NCBI GenBank assembly: GCA_008632985.1
Contig: QPGO01000025.1
Location: 124,001-188,000 of the forward strand
Source: Psammoneis japonica
Taxonomy: Eukaryota
DNA: 64,000 nucleotides
Direction of reading: 5' to 3'
Position 1 is the stretch's first letter. Each line of letters begins with the position of its first letter. Of the stretch, positions 2,506 through 32,559 are shown one piece after another. The position numbers were made by a program, and so were the translations under genes. Below the pieces are notes generated by a model, which saw nothing but the letters and a program-made list of their open reading frames with translations, was not told the DNA's origin and searched no databases.

Positions 2506-2519
2506 ATCCACCACGCACC

Positions 2520-3076
2520 TGCAGATGCCAGATGCGGGTGGTGGGTGGCAGATGGCGGATGGTGGGTGCTGGATGCTGGATGGTGGGTGCTGGATGGTGG
2601 GTGCTGCTGGATGCTTGGTGGCAGATGGTGGATGCTGGGTGCTGGATGGCAAATGGCGGGTGGTGGATGGTGGATGGCAGGTTGTGGATGGTGGATGTTG
2701 GATGGCGGATGGTGGATGGCGAGTGCTGGATGATGGATGCTGGATGGCAAATGGTGGATGAGGGGTGGTGGGTGGAGGATGGCAGATGGTGGACACTGGA
2801 TGCTGGACAGCAGATGGCAGATGGTGGATGGCAGATGGTGGATGCTGGATGGCAGATGGCGGGTGGTGGATGGCAGATGGCAGATGGTGGATGGTGGACA
2901 GCGGATGGTGGATGCTGGATGATGGACGGCAGATGGCGGATGGTGGATGGTGGATGGCGGGTGCTGGATGCTGGATTCTGGATGGTGGATGGCAGATGCT
3001 GGATGGCAGATGATGGATGAGGGATGGTGGATGTCAGATTGTGGATGGTGGATGGCGGGTGGTGGTTGGTGGATGA
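2520..3076 (+). repeat. Degenerate 7-bp tandem array (GATGGTG/GATGGCA/GATGGCG/GATGCTG)
   Basis: Heptamer periodicity is directly visible and produces spurious HPPSTIH-type ORFs. Confidence 0.95.
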
Positions 3077-3109
3077 CAAAACCCAAAATCCATTTTTAGG
3101 GTGCTGCTG

Positions 3110-5020: not shown

Positions 5021-5025
5021 TTGAG

Positions 5026-5472
5026 GAAGACCGTTCTGGCATCGAACGGCCTTTGTCACGAAATCAACGTGGTTCTCATTCCACCAAATTTTGCACTGCA
5101 CAGAATCTAAATTTATGTTGGCAGAGGCAGTGAAATTTTCATTTGTTAAAAAAAAGTCCACAATCACATGTCAATGATAAAATGACACGGTGTCGCATGC
5201 AATGCAAGTCGTGTGGCACCAGCATTGCTCGCAGCATGCGTCGTTTTGCATGTCACGCAGGCAAATGAGTGAGGGAGCCAGGCACCGATGCACTTTTCAT
5301 TTAAAATGCACTCAACTGCTGTTGCTCCTCCAAGCTGCAGCAAGAGCAAGCTCCAACCAAGCAGTGGCACACTGCACACGCGCATTTTGGCTCGCCTTGG
5401 ATTGTTGAATTTGTGCAGATCCAGCTTGAAGATTGTGCCATGATGGGCATCACCACGCAAAGTGCAAGCCAG
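5026..5472 (+). pseudogene. Inverted duplicate of the fasciclin gene 3' end plus downstream DNA (copy of 16047-16494), hypermutated
   Basis: Reverse complement of 16047-16494. Encodes VLASNGLCHEINVVLIPPNFALHRI* versus the genic VLASNGLYHEINAVLIPPNFVLPRI*. Confidence 0.95.
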
Positions 5473-5484
5473 GGTCAGGGATTG

Positions 5485-8235
5485 CAGATGATGCATGATG
5501 GATGATGGATGGTGGATGGTGAATGATGGATGGCGGATGGTGGATGGTGGATGGTGGATGGCGGATGATGGATGGTGGATGGCGGATGATGGATGGTGCA
5601 TGATGGATGGTGGTTGGTGGATGGTGGATGGTGGATGGTGGAGGTGGAGGTGGATGGTGGATGATGGATGATGGATGATGGATGGTGGATGATGGATGAC
5701 GGGTGATGGATGGTGGATGGTGGATGATGGATGAAGGATGACAGATGATGGATGGTGTTTGATGGATGGTGGATGATGGATGATGGATGAAGGGTGATGG
5801 GTGGTGGATGGTGGATGGTGGATGGTGGATGATGGATGATGGTTGGTGTTTGATGGATGGCGGATGATGGATGATGGGTGATGGATGGTGGATGGTGGGT
5901 GGTGGATGATGGATGATGGATGGTGGATGATGGATGATGGGTGATGGTTGGTGGACAATGGATGATGGATGGTGGATGGCGGATGATGGATGATGGATGA
6001 TGGATGGTGGATGGTGGATGGTGGATGGCAGATGATGGATGATGGACGATGGATGGCGAATGATGGATGGTGGATGGTGGGTGGTGGGTGGTGGATGGCG
6101 GATGATGGATGATGAGTGATGGATGGTGGATGGTGCATGATGAATGATGGATGATGGATGGTGGATGGCAGAGGGTGGGTGGAGGGTGATGGATGATGGA
6201 TGATGGCAAGTGGACAGTGGATGATGGATGATGGATGGTGGATGGTGGATGGCAGAAGATGGATGGTTGGTGGCGGATGATGGATGATGGATGATGGTTG
6301 GTGGATGGTGGATGATGGATGGTTGACGACAGATTGTGATGACAGATGATGGATGGCAGATGATGGATGGCAGATGATGGATGATGGATGAAGGGTGTTG
6401 GATGATGGATGGTGGATGGCGGACGACAGATGATGGATGATGGATGATGGGCGATGGTTGGTGGGTGGTGGATGATGGATGATGGTTGGTGTTTGATGGA
6501 TGGCGGATGATGGATGGTGGATGATGGGTGGCGGATGATGGATGGTGGATGGTGGATGGCGGGTGATGGACATCGGATGATGGATGGTGGATGGTGGACG
6601 GTGGACGGTGGACGGTGGACGGTGGATGATGGATGATGGATGATTGATGATGGGTGGAGGGTGGTGGATGATGGATGATGGATGGTGGATGATGGATGGT
6701 GGATGATGGATGGTGGATGGTGGATTGCGGATGATGGATGATGGGCGATGGATGGTGGATGATGGATGGCAGATGGTGGATGGTGGATGGTGGGTGATGG
6801 ATGATGGGTGGCGGATGATGGATGATGGGTGGTGGATGGTGGGTGATGGGTGGCGGATGATGGATGGCGGATGGTGGATGATGGATGCTGGATGATGGAT
6901 GGTGGATGGTGGATGGTGGATGGTGAATGATGGGTGATGGTTGGTGGATGCTGGATGGTGTTTGATGGATGGCAGATGATGGATGATGGAAGATGGTTGG
7001 TGGTTGGTGGATGGTGGATGGCGGATGGTGGATGATGGGTGATGGATGATGGGTGGTGGTTGGTGGATGGTGGATGGTGGATGATGGATGATGGATGATG
7101 GGTGATGGATGGTGGATGGTGGATGATGGATGATTGATGGTTGATGATGGATGGTGGGTGGTGGATGATGGATGATGGATGGTGGATGGCAGATGGTGGA
7201 TGCTGGATGGTGGCTGGCGGATGGTGGATGGTGGGGTGGGTGGATGGTGGATGGTGGATGGCGGATGGCAGATGGTGGATGGTGGATGTTCAATGCTGAG
7301 TGCTGAGTGCTTGATGGTGGATGGCGGATGGCAGATGGCGCGTGGTGGATGGTGGATGGTGGATGGTGGATGGCGGATGTTGGATGCTGGATGCTGGGTG
7401 GTGGCTGGCAGATGGTGGATGGCAGATGGTGGATGTGGGTTGGGGATGCCAGATGCTGGATGCTGGGTGCTGGGTGCTGGATTGTGGATGGCGGATGCTG
7501 GATGGCGGATGGCAGATGCTGGATGGTTGGTGGCAGATGGCAGATGTTGGTTGGTGGATGGTGGACGCTGGATTGTGGATGGTGGATGCCAGATGCCAGA
7601 TGCCAGATGCTGGATGCTGGATTGCAAATGGCGGCTGGTGGCTGGTGGATCACAGATGGCGGATGGCAGATGGTGGATGCTGCATGCAGGGCAGCGGATG
7701 AGGGATGGTGTTGATGGTGGATGGTGGATGAAGGATGCTCCTGGTGGATGATGGGTGGTGGATGGTTGATGGTTGATGGTTGATGGCAGATGGTGGATGG
7801 CAGATGGTGGGTGCTGGATGCTGGATGCTGGACACTGGATGGCGGATGGCAGATGGTGGATGCTGGATGCTGGATGGCGGGTGCTTCTTGGCAGATGGAT
7901 GATGGTGGATGGCGGATGGTGGATGGCGGATGGTGGATGCTTGATGGTGGATGCTGGATGCTGGATGGCGAGTGACAATTGCTGGATGGTGGATGGAGGA
8001 TGGCCAGTGCTGGATGGCAGATTCCTGATGGCAGACAGCAGATGCTGGATGGCGAATGGTGGAAGGCAGATGTTGGATGGATGACAGTGAATGGCAAATG
8101 GCGCATGGCAGATTGTGGATGCTGGGTGGCAGATGTCAGATGTCAGAATGTTGATGGTGGATGGCTGATGGTGCATCATGGAGGATGGCAGATGCTGGAT
8201 GGCAGATGGTTGATGGTGGATGCTGGATGGTGGAC
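5485..8235 (+). repeat. 2.75 kb degenerate 7-bp tandem array (GATGGTG/GATGATG, later GATGGCA/GATGCTG/GATGGCG)
   Basis: Heptamer periodicity is directly visible. The first ~1.7 kb is rich in GATGATG and the last ~1 kb resembles array 2520-3076. Confidence 0.97.
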
Positions 8236-10959
8236 TTTGACAAAAGACCCCTTCCAATGAAAAATTGGACCAATCAGAGCACTTCATTTCAAGGACACAC
8301 ATCATTGCCATGCTTGAAGCTTTCTGAAAGAATGCACATCATCATCATTCAATGATTGCTTCAACACAGACATGGCCATCTTTGTTGATCCATCTCAGAC
8401 AGATGTGCTGCAATGTGACTGGTGCTGGGATAAAGACACCTCACAAAAAATTCATTTTCCTTCTGTCTTTTTGTGTCTCACTCATCATCAGTGCTGACCT
8501 GTGCAAGAGAATTTTGAGAGAAGGAATTTCAGCAGAACGGAGAAGCACCCCCCCCCCCCCCCCAAGCTTCCCAACACCATGGGCATTCAGTCTCAGGCTT
8601 GAAAGCCTGCCTTGAGAACAACAGCAACGGAGCAAGTTTTTTCCAAAAATGCACCTTGGTTTGCACAACGTCACCAACAGCGATGGCAGAATTGCAAATT
8701 CTGACTCCACCAAACAGTCGTGCCCCTCAAGAAAAGCTTGTTGAGTGCAAAAGGTGCAAACAAGTGCCCTCCTGCAAAAAGGGTCATGCTGCAAGCTGCC
8801 CAAAATCCATCCACAGTGGAAAAAACATGAGCACCAAGCAAATCTTGGCTGTCCACCACTTCATCACAAGTGGTGCAAGAAAGGATGCAAGAATTCTGGG
8901 TTGTCAGGCCCCAACTGAGGAAGGCATGGAGACACTGTTCTGCAATGGCGCCAGGGCTTCAAAAACAACAAGCCATCTGCAATGACCATCTTGTTGCCTG
9001 CTCCTGCTGCTCTGCTGCTCTGCTGCTGCCAACACTGCTGCTGCTGCCATCAGCGCCATTGCGTCAAACAGCATGGAGCATTCTGCCAACAATGTTGAAG
9101 AAGATCCTCTCTCTGAGAGGTGCCAGAGAGATTTGGAAACAAATTGAAATGTGCAAAAAAGAAGATTTCTTGTCCTGCACCCACTCAGGCTTTGATTTGA
9201 AGCCTTCTGGACTTGTGCCCACATTGGTTTCATGTGAACTTGAACAAGACAATGGGCAGAGAGGTGAATGCCAAAAAACTCAAATGGCGTCAGCAGAACT
9301 TTCCTTCTGGTGCCATGTCATTTGCAGTGCCATGTGATGACATGACCAAGAAAGACTCTTTGCAACCTCTGCAGTGAGATTGAAGACATTGCAGTCCATG
9401 TCCTCTTCTGGGAAGAATTGCACTTTGCTGACATGTTTTTTGGTGAGGACATTGCATGCAGGCTTGGTCTTTGGCACTGGACAAACCACATCATTTGGAC
9501 TTTGTGAGGTGCTCACAGTGATTGTTGCTGTGCAGTTCATGAATCAAAGGATTGTGCTGGTGCAATGATGAATCCAATGAGGTGAAGGTGGTGGATGCTC
9601 TCATCTTTGGGAAACTTCTTCTTGGTGGGAAGAAGAACATGAGGGAAGAAATTGAGAACATCAAAAACATCAAGAAGTGGAGTGACTGCAAGAAGTGCAT
9701 TCAAAGGTGGACTCATCAACTCAAAACATGGAACAAGCATCTGGAATCTTGGTTCAATCAGCACAAGTGCTCTGCATCTCCTGGCATGGCAGAGGCTGGC
9801 AGATGGCATGACCCAGACTCTTGGAAACCACATTTAATGGAAAACACAAAGCCAGTGGTCAAAAACGCAAAATCACCAGCTCATGGACTTGATGAGCCAC
9901 TGCCATGTGAAGACTCATGCAGAGTTGTCACAAGCCTTCAAAATGGTCCAAGTGCAAGCTTGACATGTTTGCAAGAACAACCACTGGCATGGAATCAAAG
10001 CTTGAAAACCATTGCCACATCATTGAGCATTTTGGAAACTCTGGTTCAAGATCCTCTCTGATGGTGCACTGTGCCTTGCAGGCATGTGTGAGTGCAAAAT
10101 CTCAACATGAGAGCATGTCCAAATGGATGAACTGATTGCTGATGAGTGCACCAAGATTCCGTGCACCTTTCAAGGTGTTCCTGCTTTTGTCAACCACAGC
10201 AAGCTCAGCTGCATCAACAAGCTGGCAGAGAAAGCAGAAGCCCCCCATCCTGTGCACAGGAATGTCAAAGCACTGAAAGAAGATGATGGTGAGTGGCATT
10301 TTTCAGTGCACCTGGAGCAATTGGAACATGTGAGAGAGCAGCTCAAGACAACAAGAGCTGCAACCAGCACAGTGGCAGCAGCAACCAAAAAAGATTCTGA
10401 CAGATTCATGTGCAACAAAAAGTGTGGCACAAGAAACCCACATTCAACCCACTCTAACCCAGTGCCAATTGTGAAGAATCCATGCAAAAGAAAATCCAAG
10501 TTGCAGCACCCACCGCCGTCTGAGGAGCCACGAGCAAAAAAAGTGAAACCTTCCAATTTGCAAGAGGAGGTCATTCCACCAAGACAGCCACAGCCAACAC
10601 CAATTGCCTTTTGCTCTAACCTGCATTGCATCTCAAGTTGAGGACAAGATGGAAGATGTGGAAAATGGGAAATGGGGAGCAATGCCGCCCAAATCAAATC
10701 AACCTTTGCATCTTTTCATGCACAATGGGCTGATGTCCTCTGTCTTCAACACCATGAAAATGCAACAATGCATTGCACCTTGCACTCACCTCCACCATTG
10801 CTGTGTTCTTCTCATCTTTTCCTTCCTCTCCTCTCTTGTTGTTGCAGCAGCAATGGGGTTGCCTTGCTCCCCCTCTCCCCCCTCTTCTTCCATTGGCGCA
10901 CCTCCTGTGTTTTTGTGGAAGGAGTGTGTTGTGACTGAAGAGGCTTGGTTGTAGAGAAT

Positions 10960-11490
10960 TTGGCAAAGAAGTGTCAAGAAAAAGTCATGGCAGCCAAAAA
11001 GGCACTGGATGCACAGTGAGTGGCTCTTGCTGGTTTGTTGAGCCACTGGAAGCTGAGCAGGAGTCTGTTTGTGCTGACAAGCATCATCCTGGTGACTTTT
11101 CTTTCAAAGTGGCTTGGACTTGGGCTGATTGCATCATCAAACACACAAAAGTGAATGACATGATTGATGGGGCTGTGGTGAATGACAGTGAATTTGCTGC
11201 TGTGCCCGCGCAAAGATGCTTTTGATTGAAGATTTCAAACTCAAAACGGCAACAAAGAGAAATCCTCCAGCTGTTTCAGATTGCTTGTTGGAGTCTTTGT
11301 CCCATTCTGTTCTGGACTGGCAAGCGCAATTGTGATGGCATTGAAGCTTGGAGATGGGAAGATCAAAAGGGCCAAGACCCAATGATGAGAGCTGTGATTG
11401 CAGCTGGCATTGGCTGCAATGCTTTTCCTGCTGGTGTTTTTAGCATGGGCCCAGCAACAATTTTGAAATGGAAGCAGAAGCAACCAGATG
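10960..11490 (+). pseudogene. Decayed XPG/FEN1-like nuclease fragment (XPG-I and H3TH motifs)
   Basis: KVAWTWADCII...IDGAVVNDSEF resembles the APxEADAQ...DAVxSxDSD motif. VIAAGIGCNAFPAGVFSMGPATILKW resembles the H3TH motif LxGCDYxxGIxGIGPxTA. Stops and frameshifts are present. Confidence 0.5.
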
Positions 11491-11825
11491 CCCCACCCAT
11501 TTTTTTTTTGCTGAACTTCCATTTTTTTTTTTGCTGGTGGCCGGCCTGATGTCCACATTGGAGCACGTGCATTGTCAAACAATCTCAAGAATCGCCACAC
11601 ACAACATTTGATGTAAACACACATGTGATTCAATTTTGCAACAAGTTGGTGTTCTGTTTGGGCGACAGTGGTGAGGGGTCTTGCGGTTTTGAAAATTTGA
11701 AAAACACGTCATTCTGAAAGAATCAATCTGTGGTGTGATGTTGTTCAATGGCCACGATGAACGCTGGCACCAAATGCAAGGGGAGAGGGGAGCACATGCA
11801 ATGATCATAATTCCATCAAGCATCC

Positions 11826-12207
11826 AGCAGTTGACATCATGAGCAGTGGCAATGATGAAGAGGCATTCCTGTCCTTCAAAGGCTCCATGGATGGCAAATC
11901 AGTGCCAGCTCAAAAGCAAGAAGCAGCGGAACTCATGAGTGGCAGCAATGAAGAGACACCATCACCTGTCAAAGGCCACAAGGACAAGTGCACCGGCAAT
12001 GAGGCATCTCATGGAGCAGTTGATGTCATGAGCAGCAGCAGTGATGAAGAGGCATTCCCATCCTTCAAAGGCTCCATGGATGGCAAATCAGTGCCAGCTC
12101 GAAAGCGAGAAGCAGTGGAACTCATGAGCAGCAGCGATGAAGAGATGCCATCACCTGTCAAAGGCCACAAGGACAAGTGCATTGGCAATGAGGCCGCATC
12201 TCATGGC
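11826..12207 (+). repeat. Two-unit ~190 bp in-frame tandem duplication inside decayed ORF 11839-12624
   Basis: The peptide MSS..DEEAF.SFKGSMDGKSVPA.K.EA.ELMS...EE.PSPVKGHKDKC.GNEA occurs twice. Confidence 0.9.
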
Positions 12208-13799
12208 AAAGCTTTCTCGCGCAAATTGGGTGTGCCGAACGAAGCCACAAACAAAACAAGTTGGAGCAAGAAGCACAGTCAGTGGTGCATGGACGTGAAA
12301 GAACATGGTCAGCATTGTGTGCCTTCAAGTGCTGAAAGTCGGAGTTGGTGTGATCACAAAAAGAAGCACTTCAACAGCCACAAAGCATTCATGGATGATG
12401 GAGGGTCCGATTTGGCATGGGACAAGAAGAGCCGCTGGAAAGGTTGTAGTTTGAACAACATGGAGCTCTTTGAAAAAATGATGCTCCAGCACCCTCGCCT
12501 CCCAACCAGCAACAAAGGCAAGAAAAAGTCAAGGACTGTCTCCCCCAAGGCAGGTGCCAGAACTGACACCCCCAGCAAAAACCAAGCCTTCTGTTTCATG
12601 GCTTCGTTCCTTTCCTTTGATTGAAATTTCATTGGATCAAAACAATGACAACAAAGCCCTTGTCCAAGCATTGTTTTGGCACACAGAGGAGCACCGAATC
12701 ATTGCCATGGAACAAAAAAATGACAATCATGGACGCTGTGCTGTGGATCTACACCACATGTCATTGGAAACAGCTGTGGTGAGAATGTGCTGCTTCATCA
12801 TCTTCCTTGTGCTGACTTTCGAGACTCATCCGTTTCACACATCTGCTTTGTTGAATTCATTGTAGCATGACAAACATGTGAAAACAGCGGGAGACATTCA
12901 GAAACACATTGCTGGAATTGGGCAGAAGACATGCTCTGCCCCTTGCATTGTTGAGAAGCAAATGAAAGGGATGACCCCAAATCAGTTGTGAAGCAAGAAT
13001 GTCATGAAACAGTGCACTGCTGCACAATCACCTTACCTTTCCGACCCACATGCCATCAATCCACACTGCCAATTCCAGAGCAGAATGCTGTGCAACCACA
13101 GTCACAGCAGCAGTGCTGACAAGAGCTGCAACAGTGAAACCTTGTGCATTGAGAAGCAGAGGTTCAGGCGTGATGAGAAGGCAAATGCCGATTTGGAATG
13201 AAACAAACCCAAACAACAGAACAACTCATTGGCATCTTGCACAACATGAAGTGGGCCATCCATGTTCATGAGAGACAAACATCACAACTTCATGAGTGCC
13301 AAACGGCATCTCATGGGAGCAGCAAAGGGCAGTTGCATTCAGGGACTTCTTGGGGGGGTGACAGTCGATGGCATTAGACTGCACTGAAGGATGCCCTTGA
13401 ACTCAGCACTCAGCCGCCGCACATCCCAGCAACGCAACTTTTGCAGTTGCTTCACTTCGTTCATCACTGTTCTGACAATGGGGCATCTCAGCAGACACCT
13501 TCTTGCATTGTTCTGCACAAGCATTAGCATGCCGCCCAACAGGGGACGATGTCTGGCCCGTCAGCTCCGAGTCTCCAGTCTCATTGTTGATGATTGCGGC
13601 AGTGAGTAAAGTGGCGATCGCTCTTTGTTTGCTTCGATGCAATCGTGATGTCACAGGATGATTCCAAAGAAATGACATGTCCATTCATGAATCAATTAAT
13701 GACATTTTTAGAAAGCCAACAGCCCACTTTCACATGGATGGGGTTGGCTCGCTGCCGACCATGTGCCAACCACACTTGTGACAGCAGGCATGGCAGGCA

Positions 13800-15200
13800 G
13801 CAAAAAAATGGATGATTGGCAAAAAAAAAACTCAGACCAGATGCTGCTGCTGCTGACGATTTGTTCAGTTGCCAATTTGAACAAGTCTGGTGTCAACATC
13901 AAGCTGCTCCATGCCTGTGCCATGGCCTTCCTTTGTCAGCCTGCAAACACAATGGATGATGGCAATGAGCCACTTTGCATCCATGAACCCCCCAAACAAC
14001 CACCAGAACACCAAAGAGAATTTGGTGCCAGGTCAACAATGCCAGTTGTGTTGACACTCCCAGGTGGTGTGACTGCTGTGGAACCTGCAAGACCAGCCAT
14101 GCATTTGCTGATGGAGAGTCAGTTGCAATGTGCTCTAAATGAAATTCTCTTCTTTGCTCCTTGTGTGTTGCAAATTGAATGAAGCCAACTGTGGGATGAT
14201 GGGCAACTGCTGCATTCCTTGCATTGCTGGTTTGGAAGTTGTGGGTGCTGATGCCCTGGCAAGTGCTTCAACTGTTGAGCAGATGAGAAAGGCACTTCCA
14301 GCTGAAAACATTCACAGTGCCACTGATCTTGATGCAATTGAGGTCAAAGAGCTGCACGATGCCCTGGTTGACAGTTGCCAGAATGACATTGAAGGCTTGG
14401 ACAGCACTCCATTTCCATTGCTGCCATCATCAGCACTCAATGACAGCACACCAAAGGAGAAAGCACCACTTGACTTTGTGGATGGCACACAGTTTCTGTG
14501 GATGGAAGTGCTGGAGAACTGTGACACATGCCAGGTCATTGACATTTTTGTGAAGCTGATTAAATTTGCATCTTTGGATGACAAGAAGATTGTTGCCAAC
14601 TTTGCATGTGCCTCCTGGCTTGGTGGTGGTGAGCAACTTGTGAAGCAATGTCACCATCATGCCATGTGATCCACAAAATCCTTTACTTCCATCTGGCGGT
14701 GGATGCATCTGTGCGCAGATGCTGATGCCTTGGGGAACAAGCCCGTGCTGCTCTAGCTTGATTGGGTGGTGGTCCAAGCTTCCATGAAAGATGAGTTTTG
14801 CAACACTCGCATCTGCATCGCTCAAGACAGGCTGATGGGTTGCAGTTGTTCTTGCAAATCTGGCTTGGCTGAGAAAGCAAGAGTGTGTTGTCTGCATTCA
14901 TGCACTCATTGAAATGGAACAGCTTTCCCATCTCTTGCCAGAAGGGTGTGTTGACAATGTGATTCATGAGCTTGCCATGTGGTGGGCAAACAGCAGACCA
15001 CTCAACTTGGACATGGGTGTGGAGGCACAAGTTGTCAGTGATCTGTGCCATCTGCTTGCTGTCATGGATGGATCAAAATTTTGCAGGGTTGATTGATCCA
15101 AACCTGAAACTTTCTGAGCTGCTGACAAAGTTTGATGCTTTTGCAGTTGGAACTGAAAAGAGCAAACCACCTGAAAAAAAGAAGAGTGGCAAGTCCAGCT
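13800..15200 (+). pseudogene. Decayed TE-like ORF with a SWIM-type zinc finger
   Basis: About 14772-14900 reads VQASMKDEFCNTRICIAQDRLMGCSCSCKSGLAEKARV..C.H (CxC...CxH pattern). Multiple frameshifts are present. Confidence 0.45.
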
Positions 15201-16407
15201 CCAGTGTGCATTGTGCATTTCCAGGAAGAAGCAAAGGTTTGCATCTCCTGTCCTTTTTAAGCATGATGCAACACTCAACAAAGAGGGTGCCGGGTGCAAC
15301 AAGCAAATGTGTGGCAATTTTGCCACGGTGGGCAAAACATGCAGGTTGCACACAAAGTTACATCAGGCAGCTTTTCTGTTCTTTTTGGCATGCCAAAAAT
15401 GATCACATGTGCAAACCAGCACCACCAGTCCTCAAATCTGCCAAAATGCAAGCTTTTGCAAAATCTCAAACATTGCTGATTTGCACAGATTTGTGTGCAG
15501 ACATGTGCCACCAGCATTCCACCAAATTGGCGCTTGTTGCAACACATCTCCTCCTGCCTCAGCATCAGAAATCACAAAACCAGGCTGACTGCAATGTGCA
15601 AAGCATGTTGTTCTTCATGTGTTGAAACCTCAGCATGTTCGAAATTGTCAAAATTGAAAGACTGGTTGAGTCACAGAGCAACTTGGCCCCAATGTCAAAA
15701 AAGGCCTGTTTCAACACAGCACCTGGGGCTGGAACAGGCCTGCTGCTCTGATCTGTCCTTCCTGCAAAATTCTTTCTAGTTTGTTTGCCTGATTTTTGTT
15801 TTTCTGCAGAGAGTGAAATGCTGTTTCTCATCATTGCACAAGCTCACAGTTGAAAAAATGTGGCAATTGGAAGCGGCAGCAATCACCAAACTCAAGCTCG
15901 CCCGGCCCCCACTTGCACTGCCCTCATTCGAAATCAACTTGGAGGGGCAACTTCAGCTTTCAGCTTTCACACGTCAATGAGAGATTCACTCTCAACTCTG
16001 GCACAAGCGTGCACAGACGATCTTCAACCATCCACTCTGACCTTGTCTGGCTTGCACTTTGCATGGTGATGCCCATCATGGCACAATCTTCAAGCTGGAT
16101 CTGCACAAATTCAACAATCCAAGGCGAGCCAAAATGTGCGTGTGTAGTGTGCCACTGCTTGGTTGGAGCTTGCTCTTGCTGCAGCTTGGAGGAGCAACAG
16201 CAGTTGAGTGCATTTTAAATGAAAAGTGCATCGGTGCCTGGTTCCCTCACTCATTTGCCTGCGTGATGCGCGAAACGACGCATGCTACGAGTAATGCCGG
16301 TGCCATACGACTTGCATTGTATGCGATACCGTGTTATTTTATCGTTAACATGTGATTGCGGACTTTTTTTAACAAATGAAAGTTTCACTACCTCCGCCAA
16401 CATAAAT

Positions 16408-17464
16408 TTAGATTCGCGGCAGTACAAAATTCGGTGGAATGAGAACCGCGTTGATTTCGTGATAAAGGCCGTTCGATGCCAGAACGGTATCTTCGACCAT
16501 GCTACTGTCGTTTAGGGTGATTTTTCCATCACTGTCAACCGTCACCGCAATGTCTTCTCCTTGGAGTGTACCTAGTGGGGATAAAATTGGTAGGAATGAC
16601 GTGGTAGGTCAATACCTCGGTCAAAGCATCTGGGTTGCTGCCGAGAAAATCGAGGATATCTTGAGGAACAGCATCAAAAGCGTCGTCGTTGGGTGCCATG
16701 ACCGTTTGACCTTCGGCTGTAGGGGGTCCAGTGAGCGCGTCGGTCAAACCAGCGGCCTCAACCAAACTGAGTAGAGTTGTAAAACTTCCATCCTCCGTGA
16801 GTCTCTCTGGGATATTCGAGGTAACACACGGAGGAAGAAGGACGCCCGTTGCAAGGCTATGGATGAATCCGTTAGACGCTTCAATGTCAGGAATAGATAC
16901 CGGAATACCGTTCACTGTTACAGTGTCTCCGCTGCGGTCAAGGTTCAGTTGGAAATCTGGTTGGGCCGAAGTTACCGTGAGAGGCCCAGTGATGGCATTG
17001 GAAGGAACAGCGGTGGTAAGAACGTGACCTAAAAGCACACATGCGAGGTGATTTGTCCACGGCTCGGAGACGAGAAGTTCGACCGCGCCATTGGGGAGAG
17101 TGGCAAAAGCGGTGTCCTCCGGAGCGAACAAAGTAAGATCCGCGTCTTCGTTCCCCAAAGTTTCGGCAATGGCAGATGGGGCAGCGAGAACTGCTGCTTC
17201 AAGTGTGTTATGAATATCGGAATCAACAACGATCTCAAGAATGGTGGGACCCGGACTCGGCGGAGTAGGAGCTGACATACTGGCGCCTTCTTCAAGGAGC
17301 CTTTCCCAGAGGTTGCTTTCTTCTTGCCACAAGCCGGATTCTTCAAACCCCAACGACTCCTTCGCATTACTGTAATCTCGCTTGCTTCCGACATGGCCGA
17401 TTCTGGCTGAAGATGCCAGAACGCAGCTTGAAGCCAACAGAGTCGTTAGAATCTTCATTTTCAT
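16408..17464 (-). CDS. Secreted fasciclin (FAS1) domain protein with two FAS1 domains, frameshifted near 16573
   Basis: Signal peptide, LTLFAPEDTAF, DIEASNGFIH, TVMAPNDDAF and LTYHVIP. The second domain finishes in another frame (GTLQGEDIAV...VLASNGLYHEINAVLIP, TAA at 16408-16410). Confidence 0.9.
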
Positions 17465-17824
17465 CCTTAACTCTACTCACAAACAATCAAATGAGGAGTG
17501 CGGGAAAAAACGTCGAGTGCGCTTTACGAGAAATTCAAAACGCAACAGCAATTTCGAAATTTTTGGCACATGACATGAAAGAAGAAAAAAAGCTGATACT
17601 ACTACTTGGGTAAATTATAAACTTAGCTGAATGTATGTCTATGTTCGTTGTCGACCATGCGCACGGCAGCCTATCCTGTCCGTTATGCATAATCGATCTG
17701 GCTGTACAGCTGACATTACTGTGTAATCAAAGCTGTACATATATTATGTTTTTTAGATGCAGTACTGTAGCATTCCGATCCTCTATTGCTTTCCGTTGGT
17801 ACGATTTTGAATCTTTTTACCGGC

Positions 17825-20800
17825 GCATTGCATGTGCAAGCAGAAGGCAAGCAGGATGACCGTTGCTGACAGTGCAGTGTGCAACATTGTTGAATGGTGC
17901 CGATTTTGTGTTGTTGTGAAGTTGAAAGAAGTTGCAAGAAACAGCTGCAGACCACCATGGTGACTTGCACAAACGACCATGTCATTTCATGTGGACTCTT
18001 TTTTCATGTGGCTCAGTGCACAACAACATCAAATCCACTCAGCTGACATTGCCATGGTTCTGTGAGCGGTGCTGTGTGATTTTCAACTTCACAAAATTTG
18101 CATGAGTCTAAAATGCATTTCTTGATTGACCTCACACATGCAACCTTTCCAACATTTGGCCACATGATGCCAGTTGATCCATGATTTTCCCAACATGTGC
18201 TGGTGTCAGAAAGCAGCTTGGCTTGCAGTCAGCATGATCATCATGTGGTGTGAAAAAGCCTTGTTGGCATCAAAGCATCTGCCCACCAGTGCCACGCATC
18301 ACTGGTGCTCTCTGCCACAAACAACAAATGAAACAAAAATCAAATTCATGTGCCTTTCATTGTCACATTTTTTGGCTGGGAAGGAAGCACGGGCAGATGA
18401 TGTGTTTTCAACTCTCAGGCAAAGCCTGTGTGTGTGAGAACATGACAATGTGTCCTTCTTCCCTCCATCACAGTGCAATTTTTGCCAGGAAAATTTTGCT
18501 CCACCCACACCCACAGCTCATGTGTTTCCCCAATTTTTCACATCTCATTTCATCAGATCTGTCCATTTTTGGCAACTGGCCCATCTTCTTCATTGCTTGG
18601 AGGGTGGAGCATTGGAAAGAGAGATCTTCTAGAGGACTTTTGTCAGAAAATGACACAAAACTGCGATTGTTTTCTGTGCAACTTTGAGCCACTGTTTTGC
18701 AGTTTCTTTTGTTGCTGGGTTTGACTCTTTTGAAGGAAGTGCCACATTCTTCATTGCACGAAAAGCTCACATGAAAAAATGACACTCTCTTCTGGCCTCA
18801 CGCATTTGATCAGAAAAATTGGGAGAACTGACTTGCATGTGTGTTCCTCCTGTGTGTTTCTGTGCAATCAGCTGTCTCAAAAGTTAACCTGTGTGGGAGT
18901 CTTGAGCAAATTGTGCATCAATTGTTGTCACAGCACTGGCCATTTTGATGTGTGTTGAGCAATTGAGTGATTTGCTTGCAGAAACAGATGTGTTGCAGCA
19001 AGACATTCACAGAGTTTTGAATGGCCAGGTCACTTGTCACCATTTCTGCCACAAAGTCTTCATTTTGATGCTCTGTCCCATCACTCTTCTGAAGTGAAGA
19101 TGGCTGTGGTGGAGTGGTGGGAGTTGATGCATCTGTTGTCAGAATGACATTGGGGGGGGGGGGGGGGGGCTTTGAGAGGATGCTCATGTTGAAGCTGGTG
19201 CTGCAGGAGATCTTTCTTCCTTTTCCATGGGTGCCATGAACAGTTGAGTTCCTCATCCTCTCAATGTGCTGCAAATGATGTGGCTTGTGCTGTCACATTC
19301 ATGGAGAGCTTGCTCTGTTGTCACTCAAACTGAGTTGCAGTGATAAATTTTGATGCTTGGGTCTGTTGCTCTTCTGTTCTGGAGATGACTGAAGTGCAGT
19401 TTGAGGTGACAGATCCATGCTCATCTGAGAGAAATGCCTTTTCCTCTCTTTGTCCTTCTGTTGCTTCACAAGCTTTTGACTCTGGTTGCTCTCTTGTTCC
19501 TGTTTCTCTTCTTGGTGTCAGCCACTGAAAAATGATGCTTGTCATGCAAAAATGACATGGTTGTGCCATTGGCAGAATGGCTTTGAAATGGACTTGTGAC
19601 AAGACCCCAGAAACACACCCTGGCAGATGCAGAGAGGGTGCACAGTGCACAGCATGCAAAAGCACAAGTTGGAAAGCAAGTGCACCCTGACCAGACAAAC
19701 AACCTAAAACAAGTGCTGGTGCCAAGATCACTCCTGCTTTCAATGGTCCTCTTTCCTCCAACATGAGGGCTTTGTCCAATGTTGGCTGCTTGTCCCAGCC
19801 TTCTCCAGCCTTGTGCTTGCTTGTGTCCTCTCCCCACTGAGCCAATGACTCTGTCAGCTGTGCCTCCCTCTTCTCATTCCAAGTCAGCAACACCTCCTCT
19901 TGCCCCTCAACAATGCCCACACTTTCCTCCACACCCACACATCCCTTGGTTTCTTGACCGCTTGTCTTCTCTTGGCCCTCCCTTTGGCATCATCCTCAAT
20001 TTTTCCAAGACCAACAGGATGCCAACCTCTGCCCCAACCCCCTGACCCCAGCAATGATCTCGTTTTGTCTGCCCCAAAGTTGCTGCCAGCACCCTGTTCC
20101 TTGCCAGACAACCCACATCAGCTCCAATTTCTTCTGAGCCAAAGACACTTCATTTGCCCAAGCCCTCTTGTGCCTCACTGCCTGCCTCAAATGCACAAGC
20201 AAACCCAAAGCACTTCTTCTGCCATGCACCACCTCCTTCTTGCTGCCAACACATGCGGCACTGCAACTGTCAGCCTTCCAAATTTCCAGACCTCTTTCAT
20301 GATTGGACCTCTCTTTTTGCAGACACCATCACAGGTCACTCCTTCCACTTCTTTTCTTGCCTCACTGCCCCACCCCTTCAATTCTTTTGACTGTGGCCCT
20401 GCTTGTCACCTCCCTCCCAGCCTTCTTCCTGGGAGGCAAAGGTGTTGCCATGACACTGTCACACCTCAGCTGTCACTTCTGTCCTGATTTCTGACCCACT
20501 CTCTCTGCTTTGCCAAACAGGGCACATCTCTCACCCTGGCAACCACTGCTTTTGTCTTCCAGCCAGCCACTCCTTTGCCCTCTCCTCTTGGACCAACCCA
20601 TGCTCCACCCTTTGCCTCCAGCATGCCATCATCTTCTGCTTCCTCACCCCTGCCCTTTTCTGACTGGACTTCTCTGTCTGCAGCTCCCTCTCATCTGCTG
20701 TGCCCAACCACAATGTTCAAGGCTCAGCCCAATGTGCCCATCTGCATCACCAACAAGACACTCTTTTCATGCTCCCAAATCACCCGGGACCTTTGGTTGG

Positions 20801-23800
20801 TTCTTCCTTTCCTGCCATCCCTGCTGACCAGCTTTTGTCTGCTCTCACCATCCCAACAAGCTTGCCCAGCAGCCAAGCAGCTCTCTTTCTCCCAATTTGC
20901 CCTCCTCCTCTGAAAGCTTTGCCTCCCCGCCACTCCCCTTGACTTTCAGCATTTGACCTGCCATTCTGGCCACTGCACCTGGGATCCTGTTGGAGACCAT
21001 GCTTTTGCCTGCTCAAAGATGCACAAAAGCCCCCCTCTCCAACCACATTTGAGACAACATTCATGCTGTTGTCAAGTCCCTTGGCCCTCTCTCCAGCCTT
21101 TGCCACTCTTGTTGCCACCACATCTTCCTTGAGCCAACCAGTTTCCTCCCCAGCTGCCCACCCAAAAGATCTGCTGGTGCAGGTGTCCATCTTCTTGTCC
21201 CTGGCTCTGACCCTCCCAGTGCCCCCTCTGCACCAAAACTTCCATGCTGTTGATGTTGCCATGCCCGTGGCTCCTCCCTGCTGTGCACCTGGTTTGCCTG
21301 CACCCCAGCCTTCTTGCCAAGGCTTGCCTCAGCAGTGCCCAGGATAAGCTCTTCAGTTGCAACACACTCCCAATGCACTCCAGTTCCAGATGGGACCTTG
21401 CACCACTGCACTGCCACATCAATGGTTTGTTGGATTGCACTGTGTGTTGCATGCCTGTGCTTCTGCATGTCTTTGGTAAAATTTTGCTTTGTTTTGCAGT
21501 GCAATTGTTGGGCAATCCATTGGCAACTTTTGATGTTTCTCAAGGAGGGGGGTTGGCCCATGTTCGTCAGAGCATGCATTGCAGTGATTGAGGCTGCCTG
21601 TCTCACAGCAATTTTTGACCTTTTCATGGGTGACATTTTTGCACCCTCCAGTGACAAAAGCATGTTTCACTGTGAAACAGCCACCCATTTTCCATGTGAG
21701 AGTGCCCACCCTGTGTCCTTGCAAAACCTTTGAAAATTGAAATCATTTGCATTGCAGCATTTTATTTTGTCATTTGCACTTAAGCTGCCATTCAGTGCTG
21801 ATGGCAACAAAGGACCCCAAAGGGGAAAGATGTTGCCTCACCTGGAACAATGGGGCAGCCCCACAGACAACATCACAAGAGAACACAAATTCACCACAGT
21901 CAAGCAACAGCTGCCAGATGTGCTCCCAGTCTTTCACCACAAGCCCAGAGCAATGAAGAGAGTGCAGAGACTCAACAAGGCAATGTGAGTGCCAGTGCAC
22001 AATGTCAAGTGCCCAGCTCTGCCCCTGCAACTCAAAGAAAACATGCGTGAGCTTGTCAACATGATGGGATTCCAAGGCATCACAGCAGAAAGGCTCAAAC
22101 TGTTGTGGCATGACACTGTGTTGGACCATCTGGCAGCAACACCAAAAAAGCAAGTGGTCAGTGCAGTGCTGCAAGGACTGATCTTTTGGCAGAGCAAAGG
22201 GCACAAGAACTGCAGATGCAAGAGGTCTCACTGGCCAAGCAGAGATGCTGCCAACAGCACTCCTTGCAAGAGTGGATGCTTGGAGCTGCATTTGCAAGAG
22301 GAGGAATGTTGCACCAGCAGAAAGCATGAACATTGTGAGAAGCAGAGCCACAATGGAGTGTGACTTCCCTTTTTCTGTTGACACTTGCCAAGAAGCAACA
22401 GCTTCACTTGAGAACACCAACAATCAAAGAGAGCAAGTCTTGGAGCATGTGTGAGTGCTGCTTTCCCTGTCCTGGTGAAGCAGCAATTTGCATTGAAGTT
22501 GCTCACAGAAGACCACAGAAGCTGCCACAGAACCCCAGCAAACAAGATCCGTTCTGGCAACAAGTTCTGTCCAGGTGTCCTGGCAATCACAAGGAAACAA
22601 GTGCAAACATCAGACAAGGGTCAGGGGAAACTTGTGATCAAAGCATGAGGGCTCCTGTGTAGAGCACTGAAGAAAGCACATGAAGGTGTGTGCAACATCC
22701 AACAAATCCCTTGCATGGAAGGCACTGGACATGTTGAGAAACCACACAAAGACAGTTCAGCACATGTGGAAGCCACACCTTTGACTTTGGGACTCCACAA
22801 GACCACCAATGGCCACTGACTTGCCAAAACTGGGAGATTCATTGCACACCTCAGTGACAAAAATCTTGGGTTGCAATCCTTGAGCAAAAAGTGTGCATGT
22901 CAAGAGCCTCGATGGACCACCTGCTGAATGAGCAGCAGCACTGCCAATGACCAACTCTGGAGTCAGAAGCAAGACCAACTCCCAGTGGATGCAACAGAAA
23001 CACTTGAGAAAGCATGTGAGGAAACAAGCAACCTGCAATGATTCTGGATGCAAAACTCTGGCATGTGTGGTTGTGCCAATGCTGCAGAAAAGTTTATAAA
23101 GAGGCTTGTCACCAGAGGTCACCACAACCAAAATGCCATCTGTGACCATTTTGTGGAGCTGCAGAGTGGATGGATTAATGCCCTCAGCAACCAGACTCCA
23201 CATGCTCAGCATTGTTCTTCTGCAAGTGGGGGGTGTTGCCCAAGAGGTGCGCTGATCTGACATGCATGCAATGACATGCTGGCTCAGCATTCTGGATGAC
23301 TCAACAGATTTATGATGGCATGCTTGCAACCATGAAACTCAAGAGATGCCCCAATCAAAGCCTGTCTTGACAAGCCAGAAGGGCAGCAGGTCTCACAATG
23401 CATTGAACTGCTGTCATCAGCTGATTGGGCAATGGTTGTCAATTGGCAACAACACGCAGAATGCACATGAATCACAACAGCACGCACTCTTGCTTTTCAT
23501 TGTGTGGGCAGAGGGTGTGCTGTTGTGAAGTGTGCAGAAAATTGCACAAAAAAAGCTGAAAATGCCACAGACCATCAGGCTGTGCAAATCTGGGAGGCAT
23601 GAAGAACAATTTGTGATGGGGGTGTGTGTGCATGTGCATGGCTGAGGTGGGCTGCACACATGCAAGGACACACATGCAAGTGGGAAGGACAAAGTTAAAA
23701 CCAAGCTCAGCTGACGACCATCAAAAGAAAAACTGCGTGTCACAAAAAAGTGTCAACCCCAATTGAGTTGAACATTGCATGCATTTGATCACAGCTTGCA

Positions 23801-24745
23801 TCAGAAAAGCCACTTGTTGAGACACATCAGATGAAATGCACACAGAGCCAGTGCATTTTGTTGAACACCATTGCCGACATTGTTCAAATTCAACTGGTTG
23901 ACAATTTCAACAATGAATGTGTGGGCATTTGCAAAGGAAAGCACTGGAGACCCCCAGATGTTGTGCCCTCTGATGATCTTCCTGGAATTGCTGTGGCACA
24001 TTTGAGTGAGGTTTTTCACAGTGTTCATTTCTGAATGCAAAAATCACCCACACTCACACCCCTAATTGCGTGCAAAAACAAGATCATCAGGCACCATGAT
24101 GAAAGCACAATGGTGATGGCAACCCCCAAAATGCAGTGGTCTGTCCACAAACATTTGGTGTGTGTGTGACCTTTGATGCACAACGAACATGTGACAGATC
24201 ATGAGAGTTGGCAGACAGACCACCTCCGTCACAGACTTGACTCATGGCTTGACATTTTCAGTGTGGTGAAGCAACACTGTGAAATTCAGGAAAAGTCATG
24301 CAAATCATGAGCCACCCAGGCAATTTTGAGCTGAAAACGTGGCAAATGACCCCCCTTGAATGTCTCAAGCATGGTGCGGGGCAGGTGGATGATCAAAAAC
24401 TTTGAGCATGGGCCTGGACAGGTGCAAATGTGCTGAAAACTTGGTTGTTTGCTTGATGTTGAAGACAAACACATCCATCACTTAAATTCTTGTGCTGCAG
24501 AGCTCACACGCAGGATTCTGCAGGCCCAGCAATGTCACACGGAGTCCCACCTGTCATGCCATTTGATGTGAAAGGTGATTTTCAACCTTGCTTTTGGAGT
24601 CAAGGCCGTGTCGTCAACAATGAGGGCAGCTGAAAGACTTCGTCGGCACCATTGCAATGTCTAAATAATTTGTGGCAAGATAATGAAAAGAAGGCCTCTG
24701 TGTCGGAGCTGACACAAGGGATTGCACTTCTTAGTGAGGATGAAA
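17825..24745. other. TpA/CpG-depleted repeat domain 2 (decayed unclassified TE; includes a copy of repeat 1868-2505 at 19619-20215 and a poly-G tract at ~19152-19169)
   Basis: TA is nearly absent, ORFs are fragmented and Tyr-poor, and the composition returns abruptly to normal at ~24750. Confidence 0.88.
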
Positions 24746-32436: not shown

Positions 32437-32559
32437 CCAAACGTCATCTGTTCACTGCTCAACATGAGTTGATCAGCGACTTGGACAAGATTCGGGAGAA
32501 TGTGGTTTGTTGCGGGAGATGCACTTTATGCCACAACAATGCACAGGCCAGTGTTGAGT

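Follow-up and report, generated by a model that had tools for sequence, protein, structure and literature searches.

The 64-kb window, by which we mean the whole stretch of DNA that was analysed, carries the 3' end of a fasciclin gene twice, once at the gene and once inside DNA that has lost nearly all of its TA dinucleotides. The question that this locus raises is what brings a mutator to its target: is a sequence mutated because it is repeated, or because of where it lies? So far a single 2026 preprint, on an unrelated alga, has described TpA-specific hypermutation. The two copies described here make up a clean before-and-after experiment, and from sequence alone the targeting question would be answered in favour of location and not repetition.

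Erased domains and gene islands

The window consists of two-state, diatom-like DNA, and almost TA-free DNA accounts for ~60% of it (38.7 kb). In this erased DNA the observed/expected ratio (o/e) is 0.03-0.05 for TA and about 1.8 for CA/TG, and CG o/e ranges from 0.10 to 0.40 across erased segments versus 0.95-1.08 in gene islands. The erased domain that holds the distal copy, a 14.8-kb HMM segment at 1327..16144, abuts the fasciclin 3' end and contains 37 TA in 14818 bp (o/e 0.04), with a CG o/e of 0.25 and a CA/TG o/e of 1.86. Another erased domain, at 17819..24661, lies 5' of the fasciclin island (TA o/e 0.04, CG o/e 0.10). On that side the edge is found 354 bp upstream of the ATG, with a TA every ~10 bp up to 17818 and the next one at 18109. 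On the 3' side dense CG starts at 16262 and dense TA at 16286, ~120-150 bp past the stop codon.

As a composition control we used loci from a proteasome ATPase search of metagenome contigs, keeping 80 of 488 confirmed stretches. TA o/e was below 0.15 in 69 of 127 1-kb windows here versus 6 of 1701 in the 80 unrelated loci, and the six TA-poor control windows were all 66-72% GC and without CA/TG excess. Those 80 of the 488 stretches included no close diatom genomic locus, the best being 74% identical on a 1.4-kb contig. TA-free DNA of such extent is very unusual.

The edges of the erased domains are step-like and lie 21-756 bp from the ends of coding sequences, distances that fit gene units and do not themselves locate transcript ends. 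With 12 edges pooled, one 100-bp bin contains 75 TA per 1200 bp and the next contains 1. CG density did not drop until ~100 bp into the TA-free DNA (55 vs 55 per 1200 bp), the TA edge being ~100 bp nearer genes than the CG edge, and one domain is fully TA-erased with a CG o/e still at 0.40. This offset between the two edges speaks against a simple dependence on CpG methylation.

No working genes were recognised in the erased domains by Pfam, which was run on 24 ORFs (10 of them in erased DNA) and on 150 of the 170 stop-free erased frames; those 150 frames gave only two credible matches, to adjoining RVT_2 pieces. Three further Pfam matches in erased frames (E 0.0005-0.008) fell below the curated cut-offs and were taken as chance. 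The frame beside the distal copy found no usable match in the protein atlas. TA-free DNA is without TAA/TAG stops and yields long false ORFs.

The duplicated fasciclin 3' end

The core of the fasciclin gene island, with two FAS1 domains (PF02469, E=5.3e-34), spans 16408..17464 on the minus strand, from the ATG at 17462-17464 to the TAA stop at 16408-16410. Its best homologs share 60-63% identity. The reading frame breaks near 16570-16600, and when the sequence around the break was read through no GT-AG intron was found that restores the frame. Either the frame would be really broken or the assembly would carry an indel at that site.

Comparison of the window with itself showed that a 448-bp piece, 16047-16494 (+), recurs in inverted orientation at 5472-5026 (-), 10.6 kb away. 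By self-blastn the two copies are 93.5% identical over 443 columns (665 bits), and a repeat search of the window recovered the same pair as inverted arms I1 and I2. The gene-side copy begins with an inner half (16047..16260) that lost its TA and CG before copying. It continues with unmutated non-coding DNA past the fasciclin stop (16261..16407, minus strand), a putative 3' UTR with the domain edge at its outer end, and finishes with a coding part (16408..16494, minus strand) that holds the last 28 fasciclin codons and the TAA stop. The distal copy has an inner half at 5259..5472, the inverted copy of 16047-16260, and an outer half at 5026..5258 on the plus strand, a dead copy of the fasciclin 3' end that has been partly erased in place. 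The sequence-only reading had taken 16280-16407 to be non-coding, and the position of the stop codon confirms this for all of 16261-16407.

The translation of 16408..16494, EDTVLASNGLYHEINAVLIPPNFVLPRI*, aligns with the C-terminal FAS1 domains of homologs and falls at the end of PF02469, which matches 16411-16608 with E=3.1e-7. The dead copy reads TVLASNGLCHEINVVLIPPNFALHRI*. At a P-to-H difference between the copies, P is found in 8 of 8 aligned homologs. Where the gene has A and the distal copy V, A occurs among the homologs and V does not, and where the gene has V and the distal copy A, V occurs among them and A barely does. Because the FAS1 match and the homolog residues both agree with the gene copy, the polarity is settled and the gene copy is of the ancestral type. 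The reverse polarity, in which the gene copy gained TA and CG, was considered and is ruled out on the same grounds, an intact domain at the gene and the residues of the homologs.

The two halves of the duplicate have diverged very differently. Global alignment of the inner halves (16047-16260 vs 5259-5472) gave 214 columns with four substitutions, 4/4 of them transitions, and no gaps. The outer half (16261-16494) gave 235 columns with 24 substitutions (21 transitions) and three gap columns; the substitution densities, 4/214 and 24/232, differ with a Fisher p=1.6e-4. The inner halves had been described as TA-poor and nearly identical, and the four differences then counted by eye are the four found by alignment.

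The inner half tells us about the age of the edge. On the gene side it has two TA (o/e 0.15) and three CG (0.23), with CA at 1.92 and TG at 1.88, and the distal inner half has one TA (o/e 0.08) and five CG (0.35). There are 51 CA/TG steps where 26.8 are expected, and the copies show 0 CA<>TG doubles between them. Because an excess of ~24 CA/TG is accompanied by no doubles, the inner half was erased before copying, as had been claimed when the duplication was said to have taken in a pre-existing domain border. Parallel erasure after the duplication is ruled out by the same absence of doubles. At 16063 and 16137 a CG survives in the distal copy where the gene-side copy has CA/TG, and these CG were lost on the gene side after the duplication. 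Post-duplication loss thus amounts to two of the seven targets remaining in the gene-side inner half versus 0/37 beyond 16261 (p=0.022), which supports the view that the mutation process would have been active on the gene side right up to the edge.

One-sided loss in the outer half

In its outer half the gene copy is normal, with 15 TA (o/e 0.83) and 22 CG (o/e 1.91), and the distal copy is partly erased, with four TA (o/e 0.22) and 12 CG (o/e 1.06). We found 18 steps that read TA or CG at the gene and CA or TG distally and none that read the opposite way (18:0). Taking TA and CG together, the gene copy lost 0/37 targets and the distal copy 21/37, a one-sidedness that rests on a single duplicate pair with small counts. 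For TA the losses are 0/15 versus 11/15 (p=5e-5), a distal loss of ~73%, and for CG 0/22 versus 10/22 (p=5e-4), a distal loss of ~45%. The TA of the gene copy read CA/TG in the distal copy in 10 cases and are deleted in one; the CG read CA/TG in eight cases and are otherwise changed in two. The distal outer half contains no target of its own that is absent from the gene copy.

Selection may be preserving the final 87 bp of the gene copy, which are coding, and some constraint could act on the 147 non-coding bp too. In non-coding 16261-16407 the gene copy has kept all of its 11 TA (o/e 0.92) and 13 CG (o/e 1.93), and the distal counterpart has lost eight of those TA and six of those CG (0/24 vs 14/24, p=8e-6). 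An outer half pristine at the gene and heavily changed in the distant copy, and mutation afterwards of only the copy placed inside a repeat domain, had both been proposed; the counts of 18:0 and 0/37 versus 21/37 bear out the two statements.

The changes in the distal copy carry the marks of the surrounding DNA. Its outer half is set between TA-free flank DNA (0 TA in 4526-5025) and a TA-free satellite. Its TA changes comprise four A-to-G and six T-to-C on the plus strand. The five surviving TAs of the distal copy stand in sequence contexts where TA tends to escape erasure across the window (TTAA 8.9x, CTAA 3.3x, ATAA 1.1x; Mann-Whitney p=0.008), and because they share these contexts we attribute the loss to the same process that acted on other erased DNA. 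Background divergence between the copies is 0.6-1.1% (2-4 of 360 non-target sites). Per base, distal TA loss is ~119-238x and distal CG loss ~55-109x this non-target divergence, both rough values that depend on the same 2-4 changes in 360 sites. For planning, TA loss can be taken as ~2x the CG rate and of the order of 100x other sites.

Since 0/37 original targets were lost, the gene-side edge shifted by no more than a few tens of bases while the distal copy decayed. A stable border at the fasciclin 3' end had been asserted before, and it held at the gene while distal TA fell by ~73%; stable here means only that no advance of the edge into the gene took place while 0.6-1.1% background divergence built up. 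This step in composition spans a few tens of bases, and it outlasted the near-complete erasure of the sister copy. At 16267/8 the gene has TG and the distal copy CA, best read as a CG lost in both copies, and slight decay may reach a few bases past 16261.

Self-blastn found seven non-satellite repeat pairs in the 64 kb. Four pairs with both copies in erased DNA show 5, 15, 5 and 5 CA<>TG doubles, where the null means are 0.34-1.68 and 0, 0, 0 and 4 of 2000 shuffles reached the observed number. With at most six sites per pair, the two copies keep CG about equally in three of them (2:3, 3:2, 1:2), and the fourth is skewed at 1:5. Symmetrically mutated duplicates had been named as evidence against a positional mutator. 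Such duplicates are present in the window, each with its two copies inside erased DNA, as a positional model predicts, and for that reason their symmetric decay does not refute it. Because erased/erased pairs decay on both sides, location and not duplication appears decisive. These patterns indicate that mutation follows location rather than duplication, and the central proposal of the sequence-only reading, a positional and not a homology-triggered mutator, agrees with the 18:0 asymmetry, the edge inside the duplicate and the two-sided decay of erased/erased pairs. Most erased DNA is without a partner within the 64-kb window, copy number being gauged inside the window.

Mechanism, alternatives and known systems

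We consider it probable that a domain-limited TpA mutator acts here by location, on DNA repeated or not, with a step edge at gene units. It would work in place on any DNA within silent gene-free domains, repeated or single, and turn TpA into TpG/CpA, i.e. make A:T to G:C transitions on either strand, in certain domains only. A slower decay of CpG to TpG/CpA would run alongside the TpA loss, and the process would halt at a sharp step, no more than a few hundred bases beyond each gene unit. The order of events is that the DNA past the fasciclin 3' end was erased, then the 448-bp piece was copied, and then the distal copy decayed in erased DNA. Targeting may occur via a heritable chromatin state from which gene units are insulated. 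The sequence-only reading had suggested a process guided by chromatin or methylation and blocked by transcribed DNA, which may hold for the chromatin part, whereas the offset of the TA and CG edges counts against simple guidance by methylation; a block by transcription would be a candidate cause of the edges. The TpA chemistry is presumably enzymatic, the leading guess being A-to-inosine deamination in DNA as proposed for Bigelowiella natans, and the CG decay is probably 5-methylcytosine deamination.

A RIP-like homology trigger, in which the duplication called in the mutator and transcription or selection spared the gene copy, seems improbable. The mutated sequence does belong to a duplicate pair, its copies are inverted and just 10.6 kb apart, and every tandem and dispersed repeat in the window is erased. 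Inverted copies could also give hairpin RNA and small RNAs, so that such a trigger with a protected gene copy is conceivable. However, targets were lost 0 versus 21 of 37 (non-coding 0 versus 14 of 24), the edge cuts through the middle of the gene-side duplicate, whose inner half was erased before copying, and erasure extends into the DNA on either side of the distal copy. Moreover, the change runs opposite to RIP, just seven repeat pairs are set against 38.7 kb of erased DNA, and the hypermutated B. natans region is reported to be single-copy (10.64898/2026.01.13.699255). Still harder to credit is mutation in transit, with the piece edited as RNA, cDNA or a single-stranded repair intermediate during copying and its position irrelevant. 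The changes are indeed clustered in one copy, and RNA-editing enzymes perform A-to-G editing with a 5' U/T preference. Yet the strands are about equally affected (4 A-to-G vs 6 T-to-C on the plus strand), eight CG-to-CA/TG changes are left unexplained, and the survivors follow the context hierarchy seen in erased DNA throughout the window. After the duplication the inner half on the gene side went on losing CG, and the satellites and the 38.7 kb of surrounding DNA are in the same erased state.

Selection fares worst of all: that a uniform mutator acts on all DNA and purifying selection alone preserves TA and CG in and near genes is very hard to believe, even though the erased domains are without recognisable working genes. 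Non-coding spacers and flanks in gene islands contain 227 TA and 156 CG in 3403 bp (TA o/e 0.48-1.15), and because this DNA keeps both dinucleotides, coding selection is not the protector. In addition, 24/24 non-coding targets past the fasciclin stop are intact, the edges are steps with no gradient, and the fasciclin frame is itself broken, or has an assembly indel there. A positional process nucleated by transposons or satellites, extending in cis over neighbouring DNA as far as a fixed boundary element, is a stronger candidate, though we find it somewhat unlikely. An erased block at 46559-48309 (1.75 kb) between two gene islands contains a Copia RT fragment, the distal copy abuts a satellite, and two convergent genes are separated by a 572-bp spacer that has escaped erasure, so that non-coding status alone is insufficient. 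On the other hand, the 12 edges share no sequence motif beyond generic CA/TG-rich words, and 148 of the 150 scanned erased frames are without a credible mobile-element domain. Nucleated spread is a refinement of the domain-limited mutator and not a contradiction of it. Its boundary element need not coincide with a transcript end.

For the domain-limited mutator we also offer a fuller reading, about which we are nearly evenly divided but lean towards doubt. A diatom would possess a natural TpA-specific A:T-to-G:C DNA editor, recruited or permitted by heritable silent chromatin, and editing would be the default fate outside gene units for host, transposon and satellite DNA alike, repeated or single-copy, with boundaries inherited within a few tens of bases and separate edges for TA and CpG decay. 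These two edges would be offset by roughly one nucleosome, and the signal that the editor reads would not be CpG methylation. If true, such an editor is of interest to base-editing research. Erased domains matter for mutation-rate theory, transposon detection and gene prediction, and the expected place of the chromatin or methylation transition is narrowed to 300 bp.

The closest known system is that of Bigelowiella natans, in which hypermutation restricted to TpA affects integrated DNA of giant viruses and virophages; the hypermutated viral insert is reported to be transcriptionally silent and present in one copy (Mettrop et al., bioRxiv 10.64898/2026.01.13.699255). Both systems make A-to-G and T-to-C changes at TpA to give TpG/CpA (10/15 TA here), confine them to regions at rates orders of magnitude over background and leave TpA-poor, CpA+TpG-rich clusters along the genome. 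The B. natans mutator is reported to hit silent DNA without a second copy, and here the loss is 0 versus 21 of 37 with seven repeat pairs in the window. The lineages differ, a diatom-like stramenopile here versus a chlorarachniophyte, and so does the depth of erasure, TA o/e 0.03-0.05 over ~60% of the window versus the Rho of 0.45 given for the viral insert. A host fasciclin gene fragment is mutated here, unlike the viral or foreign DNA described for B. natans, and CpG decays to TpG/CpA (eight steps), whereas the preprint gives changes at TpA only. Step edges at genes, and an edge that predates and outlasts a duplication, are not described in the preprint, where 'boundar' and 'diatom' occur 0 times. 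A full-text literature search found no report of TpA-specific hypermutation in diatoms.

RIP, in Neurospora and other ascomycetes, is triggered by duplication, makes transitions only, inactivates repeats and produces a two-compartment genome with distorted dinucleotides; it is premeiotic and depends on a RID-type cytosine methyltransferase. Transition-type hypermutation and a two-compartment genome with distorted dinucleotide content are found here as well. However, RIP makes TpA from CpA, whereas here TpA is destroyed and CpA/TpG made (TA o/e 0.04), and RIP mutates both duplicates, whereas here the gene copy lost 0/37 targets and the distal copy 21/37. The RIP tract is the duplicated tract, but here the edge (16262-16286) lies inside the duplicate and the distal flanks are erased too. 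The expectation that RIP would strike both partners fits its description, in the RIPCAL paper, as changing both sequences from C:G to T:A at CpA (PMC2621366); the damage here is one-sided and opposite in direction. Leptosphaeria maculans is reported to have RIP-affected AT-rich isochores with leakage into adjacent single-copy genes (PMC3105345). Mutated blocks alternate with gene blocks and nearness to a block matters, as in the window. The chemistry and direction differ between the two cases, and in the window the steps are sharp, with no visible leakage into the gene (0/37).

CpG decay via 5-methylcytosine deamination takes place in methylated silent DNA, and here too CG-to-TG/CA change is limited to the silent compartment (8/22 distal vs 0 at the gene). 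Such decay leaves the loss of TA unexplained, which is the faster of the two here (11/15 vs 10/22) and has its edge ~100 bp nearer genes than the edge of CG loss.

The fasciclin 3' end and its inverted duplicate

We found that 16047-16494 (plus strand), at the 3' end of the fasciclin gene, pairs in inverted orientation with 5472-5026 at 93.5% identity over 443 columns (665 bits, self-blastn). A repeat search also recovers these sequences, here the gene copy and the distal copy, as arms I1 and I2. The gene copy contains the last 28 codons and TAA stop of the gene (16408-16494, minus strand), 147 bp of non-coding DNA past the stop (16261-16407) and 214 bp farther from the gene (16047-16260). We refer to this last part as the inner half (distal 5259-5472) and to the remainder as the outer half (distal 5026-5258). 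Weak similarity runs about 27 bp past the duplicate end (16020-16046 vs 5473-5492, with two small indels), and the duplicated piece may originally have been slightly longer than 16047-16494.

Alignment of the inner half gave exactly the 4 differences that an earlier sequence-only reading had counted by eye, all of them transitions, in 214 columns without gap columns. The outer half has 24 substitutions (21 transitions) and 3 gap columns in 235 columns (4/214 vs 24/232, p=1.6e-4, Fisher). Observed/expected ratios (o/e) for TA, CG, CA and TG in the inner half are 0.15, 0.23, 1.92 and 1.88 in the gene copy and 0.08, 0.35, 1.88 and 1.86 in the distal copy, which agrees with the claim that it is TA-poor in both. 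In the outer half they are 0.83, 1.91, 0.83 and 1.14 at the gene and 0.22, 1.06, 1.84 and 1.55 distally.

The 15 outer-half TA steps of the gene copy are represented distally by 4 shared steps, 10 changed to CA/TG and 1 deleted, and the 22 CG steps by 12 shared, 8 changed to CA/TG and 2 otherwise changed. In this alignment no outer-half TA or CG is private to the distal copy, thus the changes to CA/TG are split 18:0. Losses at the gene and in the distal copy are 0/15 vs 11/15 for TA (p=5e-5), 0/22 vs 10/22 for CG (p=5e-4), and 0/24 vs 14/24 for both targets in the non-coding part (p=8e-6). This bears out the description of the outer half as pristine at the gene, non-coding DNA included, and changed distally. 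Likewise, outer-half targets were lost only in the copy placed away from the gene: the distal copy sits within a 14.8-kb TA-depleted (erased) domain, 1327-16144, with 0 TA in the 500-bp flank on one side and a TA-free satellite on the other. Outer-half G+C is unchanged by the mutation (0.444 in pristine 16261-16494, 0.442 in mutated 5026-5258). Change of TA to CA/TG raises G+C and change of CG to CA/TG lowers it; because these effects are opposite, scans of GC content would overlook erased domains.

The distal copy is the changed partner. The gene copy is part of a full domain match, and the distal copy amounts to a scrap of 29 codons with an abrupt end at 5026. The copies differ at four amino acids. 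Where the gene has P and the distal copy H, P is present in 8/8 aligned homologs; the gene's A and V occur among homologs, where the distal V is absent and the distal A barely present; the fourth difference, Y vs C, is uninformative since homologs carry I or V.

The fasciclin gene encodes two FAS1 domains (PF02469, E=5.3e-34 at 16538-17476 and E=3.1e-7 at 16411-16608), and the protein is 60-63% identical to its best relatives. On the minus strand the frame breaks within 16560-16610, between '...YHVIPTNFIPT' (frame 16538-17464) and 'LGTLQGEDIAV...' (frame 16411-16608). Homologs continue uninterrupted across this point and no GT-AG intron mends the frame; we attribute the break to an indel in the assembly or to a recent frameshift, and in the latter case the pristine 3' part is not maintained by protein-level selection. 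The protein terminates in 'LPRI*' (16408-16420), immediately past the second FAS1 domain, beyond which 7/8 aligned homologs carry another 25-75 residues or so: a linker rich in Pro, Ser and Thr and, in most of them, a hydrophobic tail. Whatever made the adjoining erased domain may have removed the fasciclin gene's original tail.

Age and persistence of the edge

The inner half contains 51 CA+TG steps against 26.8 expected, a surplus of about 24, and 0 steps at which one copy has CA where its partner has TG (doubles). Had the surplus arisen separately after copying, about half of it would be doubles. The edge therefore predates the duplication, in accord with the proposal that the duplication captured an existing border.

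The inner half at the gene went on to lose 2/7 targets that were left when the copy was made, namely CG steps 16063 and 16137 (both retained in the distal copy); at the gene beyond 16261 the loss was 0/37 (p=0.022). Step 16267/8 (gene TG, distal CA) is most simply explained by loss of a CG from each copy; with it included, the count beyond 16261 is 1/38 (p=0.059). The gene-side end of the active zone therefore lies between about 16137 and 16270, both at copying and today. The border that the sequence-only reading called stable is so only insofar as it stayed within this interval, over a divergence of 0.6-1.1% (2-4 non-target changes in 360 sites). Relative to this clock, per-base loss is about 119-238x faster for TA and 55-109x faster for CG, values which, given the small counts, represent orders of magnitude.

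Erased domains, gene islands and their edges

A two-state model on TA density applied across the whole window assigned 38,684 bp to erased DNA and 25,316 bp to TA-retaining gene islands, with 12 edges. The o/e ranges for TA, CG and CA/TG are 0.03-0.05, 0.10-0.40 and 1.7-1.9 in the erased state and 0.42-0.66, 0.95-1.08 and 1.1-1.3 in gene islands. TA o/e was <0.15 in 69/127 one-kb windows here and in 6/1701 from 80 unrelated metagenome loci; those six have a GC of 66-72% and no CA/TG excess.

Domain 1327-16144 terminates at the fasciclin 3' end, where CG is dense from 16262 (146 bp past the stop) and TA from 16286 (122 bp). When the 12 edges were pooled, the 100-bp bins adjoining the edge on the gene side and the erased side held 75 and 1 TA per 1200 bp, respectively, and there was no gradient; the edges were set by TA, so the position of this step is partly built in, but the absence of a gradient is not. 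Edges lie 67, 122, 242 and 384 bp from the nearest coding-sequence 3' end, 232, 354, 421 and 756 bp from the nearest 5' end, and 21-207 bp from one uncertain 5' end. These distances are compatible with gene units plus flanks and are no proof that transcript ends set the edges. The window's 12 edges share no common motif.

CG behaves differently, keeping full density in the first 100 TA-free bp (55 vs 55 per 1200 bp) and dropping to 13-34 only beyond them. Inside many edges a TA-free, CG-rich collar of about 100 bp is visible (e.g. 1327-1460, 27067-27161, 60818-60905), thus the edges of TA and CG erasure are offset. Domains 27067-38186 (TA o/e 0.05, CG 0.40) and 17819-24661 (0.04, 0.10) are four-fold apart in CG retention at equal TA erasure, and may differ in age or methylation history. 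TA and CG erasures occupy common domains and differ in exact edges and rates, a hint that CpG methylation does not directly guide TA erasure.

A Copia-type reverse-transcriptase fragment (RVT_2, 46617-47167) lies in a small erased block between two gene islands, 46559-48309 (1.75 kb). The block retains just 4 TA, yet is CG-dense around 46772-46950, which fits a younger insertion with TA loss outpacing CG loss. Erased non-satellite DNA holds 170 stop-free frames of at least 90 codons; among the 150 scanned, only two adjoining Copia-type RT pieces gave credible family matches. False ORFs reach 992 codons in erased DNA (e.g. 5167-8142, minus strand) because TAA and TAG stops are lost, and such frames could mislead gene prediction. 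Long satellite arrays built of GATGG/GGTGG-type units lie at 2498-3160 and 5473-8200; their periods are 14 and 21 bp, and one family comprises 137 register copies. They lack TA and are strongly G-rich on the plus strand, where GC skew reaches 0.86.

Probable positional action and known systems

We determined the contexts of the 99 TAs surviving in the window's erased DNA, excluding the duplicate pair. TTAA (8.9x) and CTAA/TTAG (3.3x) are enriched, and ATAC/GTAT (0.06x), ATAG/CTAT (0.09x), ATAT (0) and GTAC (0.25x) are depleted; YTAR survives better than contexts with a TAY reading (odds ratio 6.7, p=6e-17). The pair's five surviving TAs are TTAA twice, TTAG, TTAT and ATAA, and ATAC/GTAT, CTAC and GTAC make up most of its eleven lost TAs (survivors vs lost, Mann-Whitney p=0.008). 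The distal copy was probably mutated by the same process as the surrounding erased DNA. The TA changes comprise 4 A-to-G and 6 T-to-C when read on the plus strand, so that each strand was hit, which argues against editing of a single-stranded intermediate. Selection is not what protects TA and CG in gene islands: twelve non-coding spacers and flanks there (3403 bp, TA o/e 0.48-1.15), one of them a stretch of 572 bp that separates two convergent genes, retain 227 TA and 156 CG.

Within the 64-kb window we count only 7 repeat pairs that are not satellites; more repeats may exist elsewhere in the genome. In four repeat pairs other than the fasciclin pair, both partners lie in erased DNA. Doubles number 5 in the tandem pair 11826/12015 (null mean 0.34), 15 in 1869/19619 (1.68) and 5 in 29416/37949 (0.88), each reached by 0/2000 shuffles, and 5 in 54297/54903 (0.88, 4/2000); CG kept (copy 1:copy 2) is 2:3, 3:2, 1:5 and 1:2, respectively. 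The process changes both copies when both are inside and one when the partner is in a gene island, as a positional process predicts. Symmetric duplicates, which the sequence-only reading had set against its own idea, therefore do not speak against it.

The nearest classical system is RIP, but the features given in the RIPCAL abstract (PMC2621366) differ: neither the direction of change nor the coincidence of mutation with the repeat unit is matched here, and mutation of both copies is not matched by the fasciclin pair. Our data at the fasciclin locus support well the capture of a pre-existing edge, one-sided mutation in place, an edge that held, and action that is positional rather than homology-triggered, the last resting on the 18:0 split and the two-sided inside/inside pairs among repeats surveyed within the window. 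The targeting may reflect the proposed chromatin or methylation guidance, blocked by transcription.

Full-text literature searching recovered no account of TpA erasure in a diatom, and the only published parallel we found is a preprint on Bigelowiella natans (10.64898/2026.01.13.699255). The preprint, which mentions neither diatoms nor boundaries, describes A-to-G/T-to-C mutation confined to TpA, with a rate near 6e-7 per site per generation, in two integrated viral regions, the larger single-copy and silent, with an ADAT2-like adenosine deaminase as candidate enzyme. We call the present DNA diatom-like because the named relatives of its conserved proteasome ATPase (44794-46137) at 87-94% identity are diatoms only (Leptocylindrus, Proboscia, Bacillariaceae and the truncated names Rhizosol-, Odonte-, Stauro- and Amphip-). 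Higher bits at lower identity to this ATPase came from two long fused proteins of unrelated eukaryotes.
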